Assembly (NCBI GenBank): GCA_009782495.1
Contig: WRIX01000001.1
Location: forward strand, 4,583-68,582
Length of the DNA stretch: 64,000 nucleotides
Reading direction: 5' to 3'
Source: Treponema sp.
Lineage (GTDB): Bacteria; Spirochaetota; Spirochaetia; Treponematales; Breznakiellaceae
Shown here: positions 6,657 through 57,303 of the stretch, piece after piece
Layout: every line of letters begins with the position of its first letter
Position numbering within the stretch: the first letter of the stretch is position 1
Program-made: the position numbers and the translations under genes
Notes under the pieces: generated by a model
The model's input: only the letters and a program-made list of their open reading frames with translations
Told to the model about the DNA's origin: nothing
The model's database searches: none

Positions 6657-6732
6657 GGTCCTTCAGCCTGCGGTTTGCGTCCCCCGAGCGCAAAGATATT
6701 ATTATAGTTCGCTGCCAGGAGGCAGCGTGTGC
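6657..6732 (+). repeat. Copy A of a ~70-nt two-hairpin repeat; it fills the whole DUF1538 / P-II-like intercistronic spacer
   Basis: AGCGCAAAGATATTATTATAGTTCGCTGCCAGGAGGCAGCGTGTGC followed by ATG at 6733. Near-identical cores occur at 17900-17965 and 57220-57303 (minus strand). Confidence 0.8.
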
Positions 6733-7575
6733 ATGAAGAAGAAAGAAGCTCCTCCGCCGAAAAAGGAAAAAACCAGCGCCTACAAAAAAATCCTGTTGGC
6801 GTTAAAGAAAAAAAAGGGAGAAGATCCCGGTCAAAAAAAAGACGATGAAACCGGCGGAATGCCCGCTACTCCAAATATGCCGGTTCTTGATTGTATTTTT
6901 TTTATTCTGGACAGATCAAAATCAAAACATATTTCGGAAATTATGGACGATTCCCATGTCCGCTTTCATTTTGTCTGCCAGGGCAGGGGTACTGCCAGCT
7001 CGGAAGTACTCGATCTTTTGGGAATAGGTTTCAGCGAGAAAGCTGTTGTTATATGCCTGGAACAAAACCTTATGGTGCCAATACTCATTAAGCGGGTAAG
7101 TAAAAGTCTGGGGCTCAACAATCCCGGAGCGGGGATTGCCTTTACCGTACCGCTTTCGGGGATCAATAAGCCTATACTTCAGGTGTTCAAAGACAGCATC
7201 CATAAGAATATCAGTGATGAAGAAAAGAAAGAAACCAGGGATGGAAAGGATACCAAAATGAATCAGAAAAAGCATGATCTTATCGTAGTTGTAACAAACC
7301 AGGGTTATAGCGATGAATTAATGGCCTGTGCCAAAGAAGCCGGCGCTTCCGGCGGCACGGTTATTAACGCCAGAGGGCTGATTCACCAGGGGCCGGTTAA
7401 GGTTTTTGGAGTTACAGTGCAGGAAGAGAAAGAAATTATTTTAATCCTGACAAACCGGAGCAAACAGGTACCTATTATGCAGGCAGTAAGCCAAAAATTC
7501 GGCCTGGCATCCGAGGCCCGGAGCATTGTATTCAGCCTCCCGGCGGAAAATATTACCGGTTTAGACCTGGATTAG
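6733..7575 (+). CDS. P-II-like (nitrogen regulatory protein P-II family) protein with a Lys/Pro-rich N-terminal extension
   Basis: ATG 6733 after AGGAGG. GASGGTVINARG and the DUF1538 neighbourhood are typical of this family. The sequence appears to contain two P-II-like halves. Confidence 0.65.
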   Translation: MKKKEAPPPKKEKTSAYKKILLALKKKKGEDPGQKKDDETGGMPATPNMPVLDCIFFILDRSKSKHISEIMDDSHVRFHFVCQGRGTASSEVLDLLGIGFSEKAVVICLEQNLMVPILIKRVSKSLGLNNPGAGIAFTVPLSGINKPILQVFKDSIHKNISDEEKKETRDGKDTKMNQKKHDLIVVVTNQGYSDELMACAKEAGASGGTVINARGLIHQGPVKVFGVTVQEEKEIILILTNRSKQVPIMQAVSQKFGLASEARSIVFSLPAENITGLDLD

Positions 7576-17392: not shown

Positions 17393-19222
17393 ATGGAGAT
17401 ACTTTCCGGTATAGCTGCTGTACCAGGCATTGCAATTGGCAAGGCTTTTCTGTACGCAGAAGACCTAGAAACTCCCCGCTATATCATTCCACAGGAACAA
17501 AGCCCGGAAGAGATGAAGCGCTTTATAAGGGCAGTGGAGGAAGTGGCGGCAGAACTGCGTACTCTGCGGGAAAAAGCCAAAACCAGGGAGCAGGACGGCA
17601 TTTTTGCCGCTCATCTTTTAATGGTGGAAGACCAGGACTTCCACTACAAAGTTAAGGCCCGGTTTGAAACAAACTACGAAAACATCGAATGGGTTGTTTC
17701 CGAAGTAGCCCGGGAGCTTTCCCGCAAACTCATAGAGTCTCCGAATGAATACCTTAGGGAACGAACCGCTGATGTGGTTGATGTTTCCAGGCGCATAATA
17801 AGAAACCTTTTGGGTATTAAACGTTTTTCCCTTGCTGATTTACAGGAAGAAGTAATTCTTGTTGCCAGGGATCTTCTTCCTTCAGAGGTTCTTGCAATAC
17901 GTCCCTTCGGGCCGCGAGCGCAAGGAAATTATTATAATTCACCGCCGGAAGGCGGTGTGTGCATAAACAAAGACAAGGTTCAAGCGGTCCTGTTGGATGC
18001 CGGTTCCCGGACGAATCATGCAGCAATACTTCTCCGTTCCTTCGGCATCCCGGGAGTATTCGGCCTTTCTTCGGCAACCCAGGAAATTACAAACGGCAGC
18101 CTGATTATTGTTGATGGCGGAACAGGACAGGTATTTATAGAACCCGACAATGAAACAGCCAGACGGTATAAAGAACAACTTGCTAAACAGGAACAGCCGG
18201 CTGTAAACCTTTCTGCCCTTAAAGATTTTCCCGCAGAAACCACCGACAGCCGCCGGGTAAGTCTTGTGGCCAATATTGAACTTCCCGAAGAAGCTGAAGA
18301 AATTGCACATTACGGCGCCGAAGGAATAGGCCTTTATCGTTCGGAATTTTTGTTTCTTCAAAACGGACGAAATTCGGAAGAAGAACAACTGGAAGCCTAT
18401 AGCAGAGTTGTCAAAGCGATGAACGGAAAACCTGTTACAATTCGTACCGTAGACCTTGGGGGAGAAAAGGCATTACCGGCCATAGCAAATGAAAACGAAA
18501 AGAATCCTCTTATGGGCTGGAGGGCTATACGGTTTTCCCTGTCTCTGCCGGATCTGTTTAAGACACAATTGCGTGCAATATTGCGTGCCAGCATTCACGG
18601 AAAAGTGCAGATAATGTTTCCCATGATCTCAAATATCGAAGAACTGGAGCAGGCGCTTTGTTTACTGGAAGAAGCTCGAACGGAATGCCGCAAAAAGAAT
18701 CAGGATTTTGCAGATGATATTAAAATTGGAACGATGATCGAAATTCCTTCGGCAGTAATGACCGCTGATATTCTGGCTAAAAAATCAGACTTTTTTTCTA
18801 TTGGTACAAACGACCTGATCCAGTACACCCTGGCGGTAGATCAGGAAAACGAAAGAGTACGACATCTGGCAAAGGGAACTCAAATTGCCGTTCTTAGGCT
18901 TATCAAGCAAACAATTGATGCCGCTCACGCTGCAGGGATACATGCGGCGATGTGCGGAGAAATGGCGGGAGATCCCGCAGCAGCTGCGTTACTGCTTGGT
19001 CTTGGATTGGATGAATTCAGCATGAACGCCTCCGCCATTCCCCAGGTAAAATATATTATACGCAATGTCAGTATTGAATCCTGCAAGGCTCTGGCAGAAG
19101 CAGCACTGACCAGCACTTCACACAAGCAGGTACAGGAGCTGATACGGGATTGGTACAACAAATATTTACCAAGCCTTACTCTTGCTTCTGATATGATTTT
19201 TGAAACACAGGCTCAAACATGA
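17393..19222 (+). CDS. ptsI: Phosphoenolpyruvate-protein phosphotransferase (PTS enzyme I)
   Basis: MEILSGIAAVPGIAIGKAF N-terminus, DAGSRTNHAAIL active-site His region, GIGLYRSEFLF, SIGTNDLIQY. ATG 17393; the track ORF starts at 17267. Confidence 0.93.
   Translation: MEILSGIAAVPGIAIGKAFLYAEDLETPRYIIPQEQSPEEMKRFIRAVEEVAAELRTLREKAKTREQDGIFAAHLLMVEDQDFHYKVKARFETNYENIEWVVSEVARELSRKLIESPNEYLRERTADVVDVSRRIIRNLLGIKRFSLADLQEEVILVARDLLPSEVLAIRPFGPRAQGNYYNSPPEGGVCINKDKVQAVLLDAGSRTNHAAILLRSFGIPGVFGLSSATQEITNGSLIIVDGGTGQVFIEPDNETARRYKEQLAKQEQPAVNLSALKDFPAETTDSRRVSLVANIELPEEAEEIAHYGAEGIGLYRSEFLFLQNGRNSEEEQLEAYSRVVKAMNGKPVTIRTVDLGGEKALPAIANENEKNPLMGWRAIRFSLSLPDLFKTQLRAILRASIHGKVQIMFPMISNIEELEQALCLLEEARTECRKKNQDFADDIKIGTMIEIPSAVMTADILAKKSDFFSIGTNDLIQYTLAVDQENERVRHLAKGTQIAVLRLIKQTIDAAHAAGIHAAMCGEMAGDPAAAALLLGLGLDEFSMNASAIPQVKYIIRNVSIESCKALAEAALTSTSHKQVQELIRDWYNKYLPSLTLASDMIFETQAQT
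17900..17965 (+). repeat. Copy B of the two-hairpin repeat, inserted in frame (22 codons) in ptsI
   Basis: CGTCCCTTCGGGCCGCGAGCGCAAGGAAATTATTATAATTCACCGCCGGAAGGCGGTGTGTGCATA. It encodes RPFGPRAQGNYYNSPPEGGVCI, which has no counterpart in my recollection of E. coli EI just upstream of the active-site His. Confidence 0.75.
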
Positions 19223-24654: not shown

Positions 24655-24682
24655 AACATTCTTCTCCTGTTACTTGTTTTGC

Positions 24683-24823
24683 GGAATATCCAGAGGGGAA
24701 CCTTCACTCACTTCCGTTCGTTCGGTGGAATATCCAGAGGGGAACCTTCACTCACTTCCGTTCGTTCGGTGGAATATCCAGAGGGGAACCTTCACTCACT
24801 TCCGTTCGTTCGGTGGAATATCC
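24683..24823. repeat. 44-bp tandem repeat, 3 perfect copies plus a 9-nt partial copy
   Basis: Unit GGAATATCCAGAGGGGAACCTTCACTCACTTCCGTTCGTTCGGT begins at 24683, 24727 and 24771, with a partial copy at 24815. It overlaps the last codons and the stop of the minus-strand trpB2-like gene. Confidence 0.95.
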
Positions 24824-27690: not shown

Positions 27691-30600
27691 CTATTTATCG
27701 GTAGATTCAGGCAATAACACTAATTCTACCGGCCCTCCTGTAAGTAATTCTGCTGTCAGAATGCTAAGTTCTGCCGCTGTTACCGAGCTGTAAAGACCGG
27801 GTCGTTCTGCCAGATGGGACAAGGGTGTACTGGTAATAACGGTAAAATTCGCCAGATTCCGTGCTACAAATCCGTTGTTTTCCATCCCCCGTTCAAAGCT
27901 CTTAACAAGCGCTTCCCGGGATTTGGCAAGAGTTTCTTCATCTGCCGCTCGTGACAGGAATGCGAGTTGTTCTTTTACCGCTTTCCTGAGTTCTTCCTGC
28001 CGCCCGGGATCGCAGATAAAGTAGATTTCCAGAGACAGCTCCCCGACAGGCGCCGGACTAAAAGATGCTCCGGCATAAATAGAATATACCCCGCCCAATT
28101 TTTCACGTATCTCGTCTGTTAAGACAATGTCCAGATAATCATTCAGTACCAGAACAGCAGCATTATCCGCTTCGGTCCAGGTTTTGGAAACAAAATAGCC
28201 CATGTAAACAATGCATTTTTCTTCCTTTCCTTTATATATGATTTTTTCGGTCATCCCGGGCCGCTGTATATTCGGATTAGTCCAGCTGTTCCATCGCGGC
28301 AGGCCGTTATTCGGAATGGCAGCCAAATACATTTCTGTCAGTTCCTGAAGTTCTTCCCTGTCCCCCAGACTGCCTGCAAGAACAAGTGTAAAATCTGCAG
28401 GATTCAGAGCCAGATTTAAAAAGGCCAGGGCTGCTTTTTCGCTTACAGAATCCAAATCCGCAAGTTCCAGGGGCATAAACAACGGATGATTGGAATACAT
28501 CAGCCGGGACAGTTCTTTAGAGAAGAATATTTCCGGACTGTCTCCTTCCTGGAGCAGTCTGGTTCTGTGATAATCCAGTACCAAAGCCAGTCCGTTTTGA
28601 TCGATACGAGGCTGGGTAAACGAACCGTAAAGCAATTGAAATAAATAAGGAAGATCCTTTAACGAGGATGATCCCCGAAGACCGCGTGTATGTGTACCGG
28701 TCCAGAACGACAGTGAAAGCTGTTTATCGGAAAGGAAGTCCATCAATTCCGGTTTGGAAAGGGCTGCAAGGCCGGAAGCGCTTTGTATTTCAGCGGCTAA
28801 TTTCGCGGAATGAAGCGCCTCTTCCTGCGAAAAGTCAAATCCGTCAAGTATTGCTTCGCCGTCCGGGAGTACGGCGCTTACCGTACCGCCGCGGGCCAGA
28901 GCATAAAAATCCAATTCGTTATTTTTATTGGCGGTAGCAACAAGGATAAGTCGCATTCCGTTGCTTAATTCCCAGACCTCTGCTCCCGATTCATCTTTAC
29001 TAACGCTGATAATTGAACCGGGTACGGCAACTTCGCTTAAAAAACCGGAAACAACAACTCGTTCTTTCGGCGGTGTTATATCAGCATCACGGCTTTCTTT
29101 GACCATGCTGATAATGGCTGCTTCGTTGGGAAGTTTTGCAGCTTCAGTTTCCGGGGCTGTGATAATTGCCAGGAGATCATCTTCTGCATAATACGATCGT
29201 ACTGTCGAGTTAATCATTCCCAGCCTGATGCCCGGAAGGAGCTGTTTTACCGCATAGAGTTCCCATTCCGGGTCCAATGCATACTGTTCACGCAAAAAAT
29301 CGGCAGTCAGTTCATTAAGGTATTGTTCCGATTCCCGTCTGTCTTTTTCGGCGGCTATCCTTTCCATATCGGAAAGAAGCGCTCCTTTGGCCCTTTCCAG
29401 CTCTGAACGGGTAAAGCCGTAACGAAGAAGACGTTCTTTTTCCAAAAGTAACGCTTCCAGTGTTTCGCCGCTGCGCCCTGCTTTCGCATTTGCAGCCATA
29501 ATATAGTACCGGGAACTTTGCCCGTAGCGGCTGTTCCAGGAACCGGCTGCCATATAGGGAGTATCTCCGGCGGAAATATTTTCTTCATAACGGAAATCCA
29601 GCATCATTTCTATCAGGTAATCGATTAAAGATTCGCGGTATGCTTCGAGGGTTGCCGATCTGGCCTGGGGACTGCGTTTGTAGTAGAGGTATACAGTCGA
29701 ATCGGGCAGTTCTTCGTCATCCAGCATCATTTCTATCAGGTAATCGATTAAAGATTCGCGGTATGCTTCGAGGGTTGCCGATCTGGCCTGGGGACTGCGT
29801 TTGTAGTAGAGGTATACAGTCGAATCGGGCAGTTCTTCGTCTGTAACTACGGCAGTAACAATCGCTCCCTTTTCCGGATCGGGCAGTTCAAAGTACGGCC
29901 GGGAAAGGGGAGTCTCCGGAACCGGGGCGCTGAAATGAGCGGCCAATTCCTTTTCCAGAACTTCTCCGTTAAAATCACCCACAAGGATTACAGCCATGTT
30001 ATCCGGTCTGTACCAGTGTTGATAAAAACCAATAAGCCTTTCTGCCGGGGCATCCTGGATTATTTCCGGCAGTCCGATTGGAAGACGGTCTGCAAAGCGG
30101 GAACCGCGGAAGATCAATGGCAGGATTTGCCGCCTTATCCTTTCCCGGGCGCCAAGACGGGTACGGTATTCTTCCATTATAACGGAACGTTCTTTGTCTA
30201 CATCATCGGGATTAAAAGTAACGGCCCAGGTCCAGTCGTCAATAATGGCAAGAGCACGCTCAGGTATGCGTTTTATGCCATTTTCGTCCTGTTCAACAGG
30301 AGTTTCTATGCCGTAAACCGTTTCTTCAAAACCCGTATATGCATTTATCTCCGGGCCAAAACGCATTCCCAGGGAACGGAGGTAATTAATCAGTTCCGCT
30401 CCGGGAAAACGCCGTGTTCCGTTAAAAGCCATGTGTTCAACAAAATGGGCAAGCCCCTGTTCATCGTCATTTTCCAGGATGGAGCCGGCATTAACTGCCA
30501 CGGTAAGGTAAGCCCGGCCTCCCGGAAGTGAGTTTTCCAGTATGTAGTAACGCAATCCATTGTCCAGGGTTCCCGTTCGCAGTGTCGCCCAGGCAGGGAG

Positions 30601-54879: not shown

Positions 54880-57219
54880 CTACTTTGATGTTGCTTTCCA
54901 GAAACCCTGCCATTCGGAAGGATTTTCCAGATAATACCGGCATTGTTCGATATAGTATTTTGGAGGAGCATCCCTGTCTTTCAGCTTTTCGAACAAGGCA
55001 AGCGCTTTGGTAAAATCTCCGGTGTAAAAAGTATCTCTGGCTGAATCGAATTCACGGATTATACTTTCTTTTTCCCGGTACACTGCTTCTGTCAGAGGTT
55101 CCCAAACCGTTACCGGTTCATTTTTTCCGACTACTGTAACCTGAGCCAGGCTGCGTCCGTAGAATTTTCCGTAGTTGTTTGCTTCGTTCATGGTATGCCC
55201 GGTACACATCAATAAAGTGCCGAACTGTTTATTAAGCCCTTCCAGCCGGGCCGCAAGGTTTACCGAATCTCCCAGCACGGTATAGTTAAAATGCCCTTCC
55301 GAACCAAAGTTTCCCACTACCGCATATCCTGTGTTTAACCCAATGCGTGTCAGCATACGTTTATTAATTCCCGAAGCATTTATATTCCATTTATTAAACA
55401 AATCTTCAAAATGTCCGGCTTTTTCCACAAGCCGTGTTTGACATTCAATGGCTGCACCCAGCGCTCTGGACGCATGATCCTCCATGTGAACAGGAGCATT
55501 CCAGAAAGCGATAATCGCATCCCCTTCGTATTTGTCTATGGTTCCTCCCGAATCCTGAATTATATCGGTAAGGAAGGTTAAATATTCGTTCAATAATTCT
55601 TTAAGCTGATCGGGGTCGAGGTTTTCGGAAATAGTCGTAAAACCCTGAACATCGGAAAAGAATATACTTATTTCTGCACGTTCGCCCCCAAGCTTTAATT
55701 GATCGGGGTTGCTGATTAACTGTTCTATATAAATGGGACTTAAATACTGGCTGAATGCGGATTTGATAAAACGCCTTTGACTGCCTTCGGTTGCATAGTT
55801 ATAAACGGTGCAGGTAAGGAAAGAAACAAAAAGACCTGCCAGCGGCAGAACCATAGGGAACCACAGACAAAAAGTGTTGTATGCAATAAAAGCTCCTCCA
55901 ATAATCAGCGAAGCAATAAGAACCAGACCGCCAACGGAAAATTGCAGTTTGTCGCAAAACAAGGCCAGCGCTGTGGTTGCAAGAATAATCATAAAGAGAA
56001 CAACCATGTCCAGCCAAACAGGGGCTTCCCGTATAAAATCGTTGTTAAGAATATTGTCCAGCATGGTAATGTGGACACCCATACCGGGATAAACTGTTTC
56101 AAGAGGATTGGCGCATATATCAAAAAGTCCCGGTGCATAAAACCCAAAAAAAACATACTTATCCGTAAAATCTCCGGGGAACAAAACCGGTTCCTGTCCG
56201 TTTGCCACAGCTTCCGCACTGCTTAAAACATCAGCTGCACTGTAAGGCATATAGCGATTAAGGCTGCCCCTGTAACGAAGTATGCTTTTTCCATCATTGT
56301 CCACAGGGATTATATAGTCGTCCCATTCTATCTGCCGCTTTTTTTCATTAAAATAGACATTGCTGCCGGCCCCCGAAACCAGCAGGGATGCGGCGGAAAG
56401 TCCCGGTACAGCGTTACCGTCAAAATTAATAAAAAGCCTTGCCCTTCGATTAATGCCGTCAAAGTCTTCCGAGTTGGTTACATTTCCCAATGCTCCGGCT
56501 GTAACAGTAAGACCCGGTATGGGAAACTGTGCGCCCAGCCGTCCGTCAGTTTCATTACTCAAGGTATAATGTTCGATTACGGAACTAAAACCTTCGGGAT
56601 GTAACAATGGTTTATTTATATCCGCCGGCCAGGTAACGGAGCTTCCCGTCTGTGTGCTGAAAAATACTGTTTGCACCGTTTTGCCGTAGTTTTTTTGCGC
56701 CTCAATAAAGACATTGTCGTCGGCACGATCCGAAAGACTCCGCAAAGCTGTCACGGCAGTTAAGTATTTTGCAAAAAAACTGCGCTGTTCTTCGCCGGGA
56801 ACAGCGGTCTGAACCGCAGTAATGTTTTCGCCTATCTCTTCCATAGCGTGAACTGCGGTATCAATAATGGCATCCTGGTTGGCATTCCGGTAAATTGAAG
56901 GTTCGGAAAAAAGAACGTCAAAGACTATGGATTTGGCGCCTCCCATATTCATGTAATCCACAATATCCGCATACGCTTTACGCGGCCACGGCCAGCCCCA
57001 GCCATGTTCCCGGTTGGCCCAGTCTATACTGGGTTGATCCAGCAATATTACAACAATGTCGTCAGACGGCTTATAGGTATCGGCAAAGAGCTTAACCCTG
57101 AAATCGTATGCCTTGTATTCAAGAGCATCAAAGATGTGAAGAAAATGCAGAGCGCCAAGTCCAATAAACACCAGTACAACAATAATAACGGCGGTAATTA
57201 TTTTTTTATTTTTTGCCAT
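54880..57219 (-). CDS. CHASE2 sensor domain adenylate/guanylate cyclase (class III)
   Basis: N-terminal transmembrane segment, large extracytoplasmic domain, three transmembrane segments. Cyclase motifs ISIFFSDVQGFTTISE, KYEGDAIIAFW, RIGLNTGYAVVGNFGS. True ATG is 57219; the track starts at TTG 57225. Confidence 0.88.
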   Translation of the reverse strand: MAKNKKIITAVIIVVLVFIGLGALHFLHIFDALEYKAYDFRVKLFADTYKPSDDIVVILLDQPSIDWANREHGWGWPWPRKAYADIVDYMNMGGAKSIVFDVLFSEPSIYRNANQDAIIDTAVHAMEEIGENITAVQTAVPGEEQRSFFAKYLTAVTALRSLSDRADDNVFIEAQKNYGKTVQTVFFSTQTGSSVTWPADINKPLLHPEGFSSVIEHYTLSNETDGRLGAQFPIPGLTVTAGALGNVTNSEDFDGINRRARLFINFDGNAVPGLSAASLLVSGAGSNVYFNEKKRQIEWDDYIIPVDNDGKSILRYRGSLNRYMPYSAADVLSSAEAVANGQEPVLFPGDFTDKYVFFGFYAPGLFDICANPLETVYPGMGVHITMLDNILNNDFIREAPVWLDMVVLFMIILATTALALFCDKLQFSVGGLVLIASLIIGGAFIAYNTFCLWFPMVLPLAGLFVSFLTCTVYNYATEGSQRRFIKSAFSQYLSPIYIEQLISNPDQLKLGGERAEISIFFSDVQGFTTISENLDPDQLKELLNEYLTFLTDIIQDSGGTIDKYEGDAIIAFWNAPVHMEDHASRALGAAIECQTRLVEKAGHFEDLFNKWNINASGINKRMLTRIGLNTGYAVVGNFGSEGHFNYTVLGDSVNLAARLEGLNKQFGTLLMCTGHTMNEANNYGKFYGRSLAQVTVVGKNEPVTVWEPLTEAVYREKESIIREFDSARDTFYTGDFTKALALFEKLKDRDAPPKYYIEQCRYYLENPSEWQGFWKATSK

Positions 57220-57303
57220 GTACAACGCTGCCTCCTGGCAGTGAATCAGAATAATTTCCCTGCGCTTGCGGGCCGCAGGCCCGCACCATCTCCCTGAAAT
57301 CCC
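57220..57303 (-). repeat. Copy C of the two-hairpin repeat; it fills the M48 / cyclase intercistronic spacer
   Basis: Minus strand: TGCGGGCC-TGC-GGCCCGCA, then AGCGCAGGGAAATTATTCTGATTCACTGCCAGGAGGCAGCGTTGTAC, then ATG. Confidence 0.8.

Follow-up and report, generated by a model that had tools for sequence, protein, structure and literature searches.

The ptsI gene of a Treponema sp., encoding enzyme I (EI) of the phosphoenolpyruvate:sugar phosphotransferase system (PTS), contains a 66-nt block that adds 22 codons shortly before the codon of the active-site histidine. This locus raises two questions: how did the block get there, and what has it done to the enzyme? In the following, the window is the whole 64,000-nt stretch of DNA that was analysed, and positions are those of the window unless a contig label is given. 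The block, designated copy B (17900..17965, plus strand), is an insertion of a repeat copy, and it persists in three assemblies. As a whole, the data are best explained if copy B is one unit of a non-coding, non-autonomous mobile repeat that is restricted to the genus and inserted here recently, a reading to which we assign a probability of about 0.8.

The insert in ptsI

The ptsI gene (17393..19222, plus strand) forms a 609-codon open reading frame (ORF) including the insert, starting with ATG at 17393 and ending with a stop codon at 19222. Its product has the PEP-utilisers_N, PEP-utilizers (His domain), and PEP-utilizers_C domains together with the conserved phospho-histidine of EI, and it matched E. 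coli EI (2hwg) with E = 1e-132 in a phmmer search. PF05524, PF00391, and PF02896 are the Pfam domains recorded for the database copy of the protein.

Copy B has the sequence CGTCCCTTCGGGCCGCGAGCGCAAGGAAATTATTATAATTCACCGCCGGAAGGCGGTGTGTGCATA and consists of a 63-nt repeat unit plus the second of two ATA triplets, corresponding to codons 170-191 of ptsI. The translation across it reads ...PSEVLAI-RPFGPRAQGNYYNSPPEGGVCI-NKDKVQAVLLDAGSRTNH..., and the sequence and its translation confirmed the original prediction that the element is exactly 66 nt long, adds 22 codons, contains no stop, and keeps the frame. The repeated target triplet can be read directly on both sides, its 5' copy at 17897..17899 (plus strand, codon I169) and its 3' copy at 17963..17965 (plus strand, codon I191). 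As RNA, copy B was predicted to fold into two hairpins, both on the plus strand. Hairpin 1 (17900..17914) is CGTCCC / TTC / GGGCCG with one T-C mismatch, and hairpin 2 (17940..17957) is CACCGCC / GGAA / GGCGGTG. The linker between them, CGAGCGCAAGGAAATTATTATAATT (17915..17939, plus strand), is conserved, and its columns in alignment A4 are nearly invariant. The loop of hairpin 2 in copy B is a weakened version of the AGGAGG Shine-Dalgarno sequence found in the family.

Alignment to 2hwg placed the insert between residues 170 and 171 of E. coli EI. The phospho-histidine is H209 (codon CAT, 18017..18019, plus strand), which aligned with H189 of 2hwg and occupies an invariant column among 19 EI homologs (alignment A3). 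Since the insert ends at I191, 18 residues separate it from the phospho-histidine, rather than the approximately 14 that had been estimated.

Empty sites and independent assemblies

The genome holding the window, G000, is a 2.41-Mb draft metagenome-assembled genome of 150 contigs that is 86% complete, and it was compared with four genomes of the same genus (G001-G004). The EI of G004 is 96% identical to that of the window and lacks exactly the 66 nt; its gene has 588 codons, against 610 in the window query. At the DNA level, G004 reads CTTGCA-TTT-AACAAG where the window reads CTTGCA-ATA[63 nt]ATA-AACAAA. No segment was present at this site in G003, in the other family orthologs (approximately 35 in all), or in 18 distant EI homologs. 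The alignment of orthologs from close relatives, which had been suggested as a check, thus showed the 22 residues to be missing from G004, G003, and the other family orthologs, and the segment is not a loop common to the homologs examined. Nearly all family orthologs examined, G003 among them, have ATG (Met) as the codon at this position, and G004 has TTT.

An exact look-up of the window EI protein returned no record, the cluster representative differing at two residues. A 609-aa EI in the protein collection is identical to the window protein at 607 of the 609 positions and is encoded on contigs of ENA assemblies. In two independent ENA assemblies, ERZ27257305 and ERZ27257320, the insert is identical base for base, with 99.76% identity to the window over 7.8 kb.

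Copies and structure of the repeat

Two further copies lie in the window: copy A (6661..6735, plus strand), which belongs to a subfamily with a longer hairpin 1, and copy C (57217..57286, minus strand). Positions 17904-17958 of copy B pair with 57225-57279 and with 6676-6728, the arms being 80-81% complementary over 53-55 nt. An nhmmer profile built from the three window copies, copy B among them, gave E = 4e-21 for copy B and values as low as E = 5e-20 for copies on other contigs, and the similarity of copy B to copies A and C proved significant on both measures. With the same profile, at least 24 copies were found in G000. A search with a 69-nt consensus gave at least 20 matches in G000 and 28, 13, 4, and 0 in the four other genomes of the genus. 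Three other genera of the family gave single matches that were partial and weak, and the other families of the order searched gave none. A scan of genome contigs for the repeat pattern gave no match outside near relatives, and that of metagenome contigs hit nine contigs, eight of them from Ga0082212.

The alignment of all copies defined the family unit as ATG, N, hairpin 1 (GGGCC-TTCG-GGCCC type), CGAGCGCAAGGAAATTATTATAGTTC, hairpin 2 (CACCGCC-AGGA-GGCGGTG), TGTGC, and ATG. Both hairpins covary strongly. Among 34 copies, compensatory changes were observed at 5 of the 8 pairs of helix 1 and 5 of the 7 pairs of helix 2, in which 96.6% of the cells were paired. For both hairpins together (10 of 15 pairs), 93.7% of the cells were paired; shuffled alignments gave 81.5%, and controls in which the partner was slid gave 31-53%. 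At the gathering threshold of Rfam, the only match in the window was a tRNA, and a scan of eight copy-bearing loci with E up to 10 gave no relevant match. The TD-1 motif of Treponema denticola, a candidate lead, was dropped, having no Rfam match at these eight loci. The literature search found neither a published Treponema start-codon repeat nor transposable elements of the miniature inverted-repeat type (MITEs) with a Shine-Dalgarno sequence.

Association with start codons

In 17 of the 22 G000 copies with an intact 3' end, the terminal ATG opens an ORF of more than 100 aa, and the same pattern was seen in G004, G001, and G003. Start codons make up approximately 3% of ATG triplets (a rough estimate assuming one gene per kb), and the bias toward start codons is therefore very strong. 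Both other window copies follow the pattern. The 3' ATG of copy A (6733-6735) opens a 280-aa ORF, and an ortholog of this copy is present at G004 C11; that of copy C (57219-57217) opens a 779-aa CHASE2/nucleotide cyclase gene with the Pfam domains CHASE2 and Guanylate_cyc. In the family unit, the loop and the 3' stem of hairpin 2 spell AGGAGG approximately 9 nt ahead of the terminal ATG, and upstream of this there is another GGA motif (CAAGGAAA). The consensus is stop-free in the frame of the ATG and reads through into the downstream gene.

Tandem arrays with a shared ATG occur in G004, G001, and G003, with a period of 66 nt (65 nt in one G004 array), and 5'-truncated half units are found at many loci. 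Arrays of two or three units at L082 (G004:C46), L093 (G004:C3), L154 (G004:C1), and L083 (G003:C15) open with a half unit composed of hairpin 2 and TGTGCATG. Similar half sites are retained at the orthologous sites C65 and C6:35129-35190 of G000, which are otherwise empty.

Start-codon copies are common to G000 and G004 in at least six orthologous genes (C28, C21, C53, C12, C73, and copy A), and the intragenic copies of G000 (in ptsI and in the copA and DHH genes described below) are all three absent from G004. This distribution fits the idea that intragenic copies are young and often purged, and that start-codon copies are tolerated or useful.

Other intragenic copies and the flanking triplets

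The original prediction had likened copy B to the way in which Rickettsia palindromic elements (RPEs) insert in frame into coding sequence, and three more in-frame intragenic copies support this likeness. First, a copA-type P1B ATPase gene (G000:C94:4226-6640, minus strand), with the domains HMA, E1-E2_ATPase, and Hydrolase, carries a 66-nt copy in frame. Its site reads ...AAGGTGGCT-ATG[63 nt]ATG-GTAGGAGAC... in G000, whereas a single ATG stands there in G004 and G002, and the 22 added residues fall between KVAM and VGDGINDAPAL, a core hinge motif. Second, a DHH/DHHA1 phosphoesterase gene of G000 contains a 90-nt long variant (G000:C36:15327-15421) in antisense orientation and in frame, flanked on the gene strand by CAT...CAT and holding an extra internal hairpin, GCTGCTGTCGCAGC. 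The 30 residues follow directly after VVDHH, and the site is empty in G004:C36 (...VVDHH-ALGN...). Third, an M20 peptidase gene at L104 (G001:C94) carries two tandem units, antisense and in frame, encoding 44 residues; its ortholog G000:C101:1239-2478 has no such units and keeps a hairpin-2-like remnant (ACATGCGGCGTTTACAT). In all four genes, ptsI included, a dispersed repeat leaves the reading frame intact and is missing from orthologs. The mobility of the repeat, another part of the original prediction, is likewise supported by presence and absence that differ between species of the genus and by the single-ATG empty site in copA.

The triplets on the two flanks tend to match. They behave like a target-site duplication: copA has one ATG when empty and ATG...ATG when filled, and ptsI has ATA...ATA, with GTG...ATG pairs as exceptions. 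All three units with a 3' ATA (ptsI, G000 C26, and the first unit of G003 C15) also have a 5' ATA, and an ATA end was seen in none of the approximately 40 units whose 5' triplet is ATG or GTG (p = 0.0013 by Fisher's test, on counts that we compiled).

Proposed course of insertion

From these observations, we infer triplet duplication as the mechanism. The element would target ATR triplets, mostly ATG, with the triplet then standing on both flanks as a 3-bp target duplication, and 63 nt plus 3 nt would give the 66 nt. A unit landing in sense orientation at a start codon would bring AGGAGG in the loop of hairpin 2 and restore the ATG. On landing at an in-frame internal ATG or ATA, the stop-free 66-nt unit would just be read by the ribosome as 22 more residues. 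The ptsI codon at the landing site is Met (ATG) in most relatives and would have been ATA in this lineage, and copy B may be regarded as an off-target landing at an internal ATR codon by a family that sits mostly at start codons. The insertion would have occurred after the split from G004, at a dS of approximately 0.2. Use of the insert as an internal translation start in ptsI was also considered; ATA as the start triplet and GGAAGG instead of AGGAGG in the loop make it unlikely.

Several points weigh against this course of events. Neither a transposase nor another enzyme that could mobilise the repeat family was identified, and no parent insertion sequence (IS) was found for it. The only symmetry between the ends is ATGC/GCAT, in which the flanking triplet is included; the 63-nt core begins with CGTCCC... 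and ends with ...GTGTGC, which are not inverted repeats as they would be in a classical MITE. Copies A and C and that of G000 C15 pair a 5' GTG with a 3' ATG, so that a strict 3-bp duplication would need a later change. Because G004 has TTT, the ptsI codon before insertion is inferred rather than observed. Finally, 5'-truncated half units are present at many loci, and some of the empty orthologous sites keep a hairpin-2-like remnant, which means that not every gain or loss is a simple insertion.

Effect of the insert on EI

The AlphaFold2 model of the insert-bearing EI, built with 19 sequences, had a mean predicted local distance difference test (pLDDT) score of 83, and values below 50 were confined to residues 171-193 and the C-terminal tail. 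In this model, the insert sits between helix 163-167 and strand 196-201, with helix 209-217 next. The model of the insert-free EI of G004 had the same order of elements (helix 215-220, a 5-residue turn, strand 226-231, and helix 239-247). Comparison with solved EI structures by Foldseek gave template modelling (TM) scores of 0.83-0.84 against 1zym for the N-terminal domain and 0.96 for the C-terminal domain. When structures with and without the insert were set side by side, as had been proposed, the flanking elements matched and the insert appeared as a disordered loop. The insert would replace the short turn between a helix and the strand that leads to the phospho-histidine, within the N-terminal domain's alpha/beta subdomain. 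Most likely, it forms a floppy surface loop and EI stays folded and at least partly active, with the reservation that AlphaFold cannot judge activity. The ptsI ORF contains no stops, and its dN/dS against G004 is 0.10. The loop is probably tolerated, and we hold the retention of EI function to be somewhat more probable than its loss.

The competing account that survives best is that the insertion crippled EI and left a young pseudogene-in-waiting, tolerated because another intact EI adjoins an HPr gene. We consider this unlikely. An intact 573-aa EI paralog at G000:C28:23344-25038 does adjoin an HPr gene, and the genome has three HPr genes in all. The window ptsI may therefore be dispensable, given this second intact EI/HPr pair. 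The ENA strains carry D466N at a column that is invariant in the 19 EI homologs, which hints at relaxed constraint in the sequence, and the strain-level changes comprise two nonsynonymous and two synonymous ones. The absence of every G000 intragenic copy from G004, where several start-codon copies are shared, also fits short-lived intragenic copies. However, the strain-level counts are too few to demonstrate relaxed selection, and the overall dN/dS of 0.10 against G004 also speaks against this account. The reading frame is open throughout, neither the insert nor its two hairpins differ among the three assemblies, and the insert occupies a short turn with the predicted fold unchanged.

A further EI-like gene was observed at G000:C86:1458-3152. 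It also adjoins an HPr gene and contains three in-frame TAA stops, and it may be a pseudogene.

Mobilisation and other readings

With regard to mobilisation, the element might instead move as single-stranded DNA by means of a Y1 transposase of the IS200/IS605 or RAYT type, inserting 3' of NATG without a true duplication, in which case the 3' CATG would belong to the element and serve for cleavage at its right end. We judge this improbable. Two subterminal hairpins without terminal inverted repeats would suit such a process, as would the ATG shared within tandem arrays, and Y1 transposase genes are common in the family and present in G004 and G001. However, PF01797 had no match in G000 (86% complete), the Y1 gene of G004 is flanked by a different repeat, and neither this gene nor that of G001 is flanked by the element. 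The element profile was also without a match in 32 loci with Y1 transposase genes. Furthermore, the pairing of ATA with ATA (ptsI, G000 C26, and G003 C15) is to be expected of a duplication, but not of a fixed element end. The candidate link to Y1, IS200, or RAYT elements is accordingly unsupported, though not disproven; the repeat at the flank of the G004 gene is GTACACGCAACGGCAG-like.

At L117 (G004:C36:15948-19286), positions 1012-1911 on the minus strand encode a 299-aa protein resembling Y1 (HUH) transposases, with a long C-terminal extension, next to the GC-rich repeat GCAGCTGCTGCCGTTGCGTGTAC. From its sequence, this gene may be a RAYT with a REP family of its own, and no homolog of it was found in G000. 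A reverse transcriptase was also considered, an idea that came from the 5'-truncated units. An RVT_1 ORF is present in G000:C148, with partial matches in G004 and G002; copy number is uncorrelated with these, and no link to the repeat emerged. The ORF (G000:C148:1291-1953) is 524 aa long with a full RVT_1 domain on a 2.7-kb contig, and it probably belongs to a group II intron or another retroelement.

Still less probable is a reading of the family as nothing more than a cis-regulatory 5' leader RNA, with intragenic copies that arose by recombination, not by transposition. It is true that most intact copies are leaders ending at a start codon, that the hairpins covary, and that the unit has a Shine-Dalgarno sequence in a loop and the second GGA motif upstream. 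On the other hand, exact gains of 66 or 90 nt have occurred at ATG or CAT within three conserved enzymes, two of them antisense, and copies that are 85-95% identical stand ahead of unrelated genes. Tandem arrays and gains and losses between species of the genus do not agree with a mere leader either. Leader function and mobility are compatible, and both can be true.

It is only barely conceivable that the matching flank triplets (ATA in ptsI, ATG in copA, and CAT in the DHH gene), together with the stable hairpin immediately behind the first triplet, serve as take-off and landing codons for translational bypassing, as in gene 60 of phage T4 and the mobile 'byp' inserts of yeast mitochondria. 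If so, some ribosomes would hop 63 nt and yield wild-type EI, and a mobile insert would be erased at translation.

The notion that the 22 residues are an old lineage-specific EI loop, or the block an artefact of assembly or binning, has nothing in its favour beyond the origin of the window in a draft metagenome-assembled genome of 150 contigs, and it is refuted by the empty site of the 96% identical G004 ortholog, the lack of the segment in all other homologs examined, the 84-94% identity of copy B DNA to other dispersed copies, and the same insert in the two independent ENA assemblies.

Comparison with known repeats

The Treponema repeat, which we regard as a small mobile element, is of a kind with RPEs and with mycobacterial interspersed repetitive units (MIRUs), and is set apart by its size, its host, its own Shine-Dalgarno sequence and ATG, and its stop-free 66-nt unit. 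RPEs are known as in-frame coding insertions in genes (PMC10969869). Like them, the Treponema element is a short hairpin-forming repeat that inserts in frame, leaves the ORF open, and adds a peptide, often to a housekeeping enzyme. This likeness is one of functional class and is not meant as homology to the ten RPE sequence families. RPEs are approximately 150 bp long and occur in Rickettsia, and neither a preference for start codons nor a ribosome-binding site has been reported for them, whereas the Treponema element is 66 nt long (90 nt in the variant), sits mostly on start codons, and carries AGGAGG in a hairpin loop.

MIRUs can land on start codons with little cost (PMC12548453), and the Treponema element shares with them the short length, the start-codon or intercistronic sites, and the frequent tandem arrangement. 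MIRUs also provide translational coupling through an internal small ORF that ends 4 nt into the start of the next gene. This -4 coupling is not found in the Treponema element, which is stop-free, has its own AGGAGG 9 nt before the ATG, and reads through when intragenic.

Repetitive extragenic palindromes (REP/REPIN) with their RAYT transposases, and the palindromes derived from IS200/IS605, are likewise small, GC-rich, non-coding repeats that form hairpins and lack classical terminal inverted repeats. A cognate Y1 gene flanked by the repeat, as expected of such systems, was found neither in G000, as far as its 86% completeness reaches, nor among the 32 Y1 loci. The Treponema element further differs from them in its duplication-like flanking triplet and in the strict placement and sense orientation that it keeps with respect to start codons. 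Classical MITEs such as Correia/NEMIS elements are also non-autonomous and short, make a short target duplication, and can alter the expression of neighbouring genes. In contrast, the Treponema element has no terminal inverted repeats or identified parent IS, and it targets ATR triplets. What it delivers is a ribosome-binding site, against a promoter or an RNase III site in the case of Correia elements.

Two unrelated repeats were noted in the window: a perfect tandem duplication of 123 nt at 29596-29841 (two copies, 100% identical) and a tandem repeat with a 44-nt period at 24676-24823 (at least three copies, 95-100% identity; GGAATATCCAGAGGGGAACCTTCACTCACTTCCGTTCGTTCGGT).

Meaning for the genus

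The make-up of the repeat appears to keep the damage small when it lands on an ATG, and species of the same genus provide clean empty sites for comparison. In a single genome, three enzymes have received loops from it next to their catalytic motifs: 18 residues ahead of the phospho-histidine of EI, directly before the GDGxNDxP hinge of a copper ATPase, and directly after the DHH motif of a phosphoesterase. These genes constitute a natural experiment on how conserved enzymes tolerate insertions and on the way in which new protein segments originate from mobile repeats. The unit itself is a compact, portable translation-initiation cassette that lends itself to testing. For annotation, the finding is a warning that odd loops in the proteins of termite-gut Treponema may be repeat insertions.

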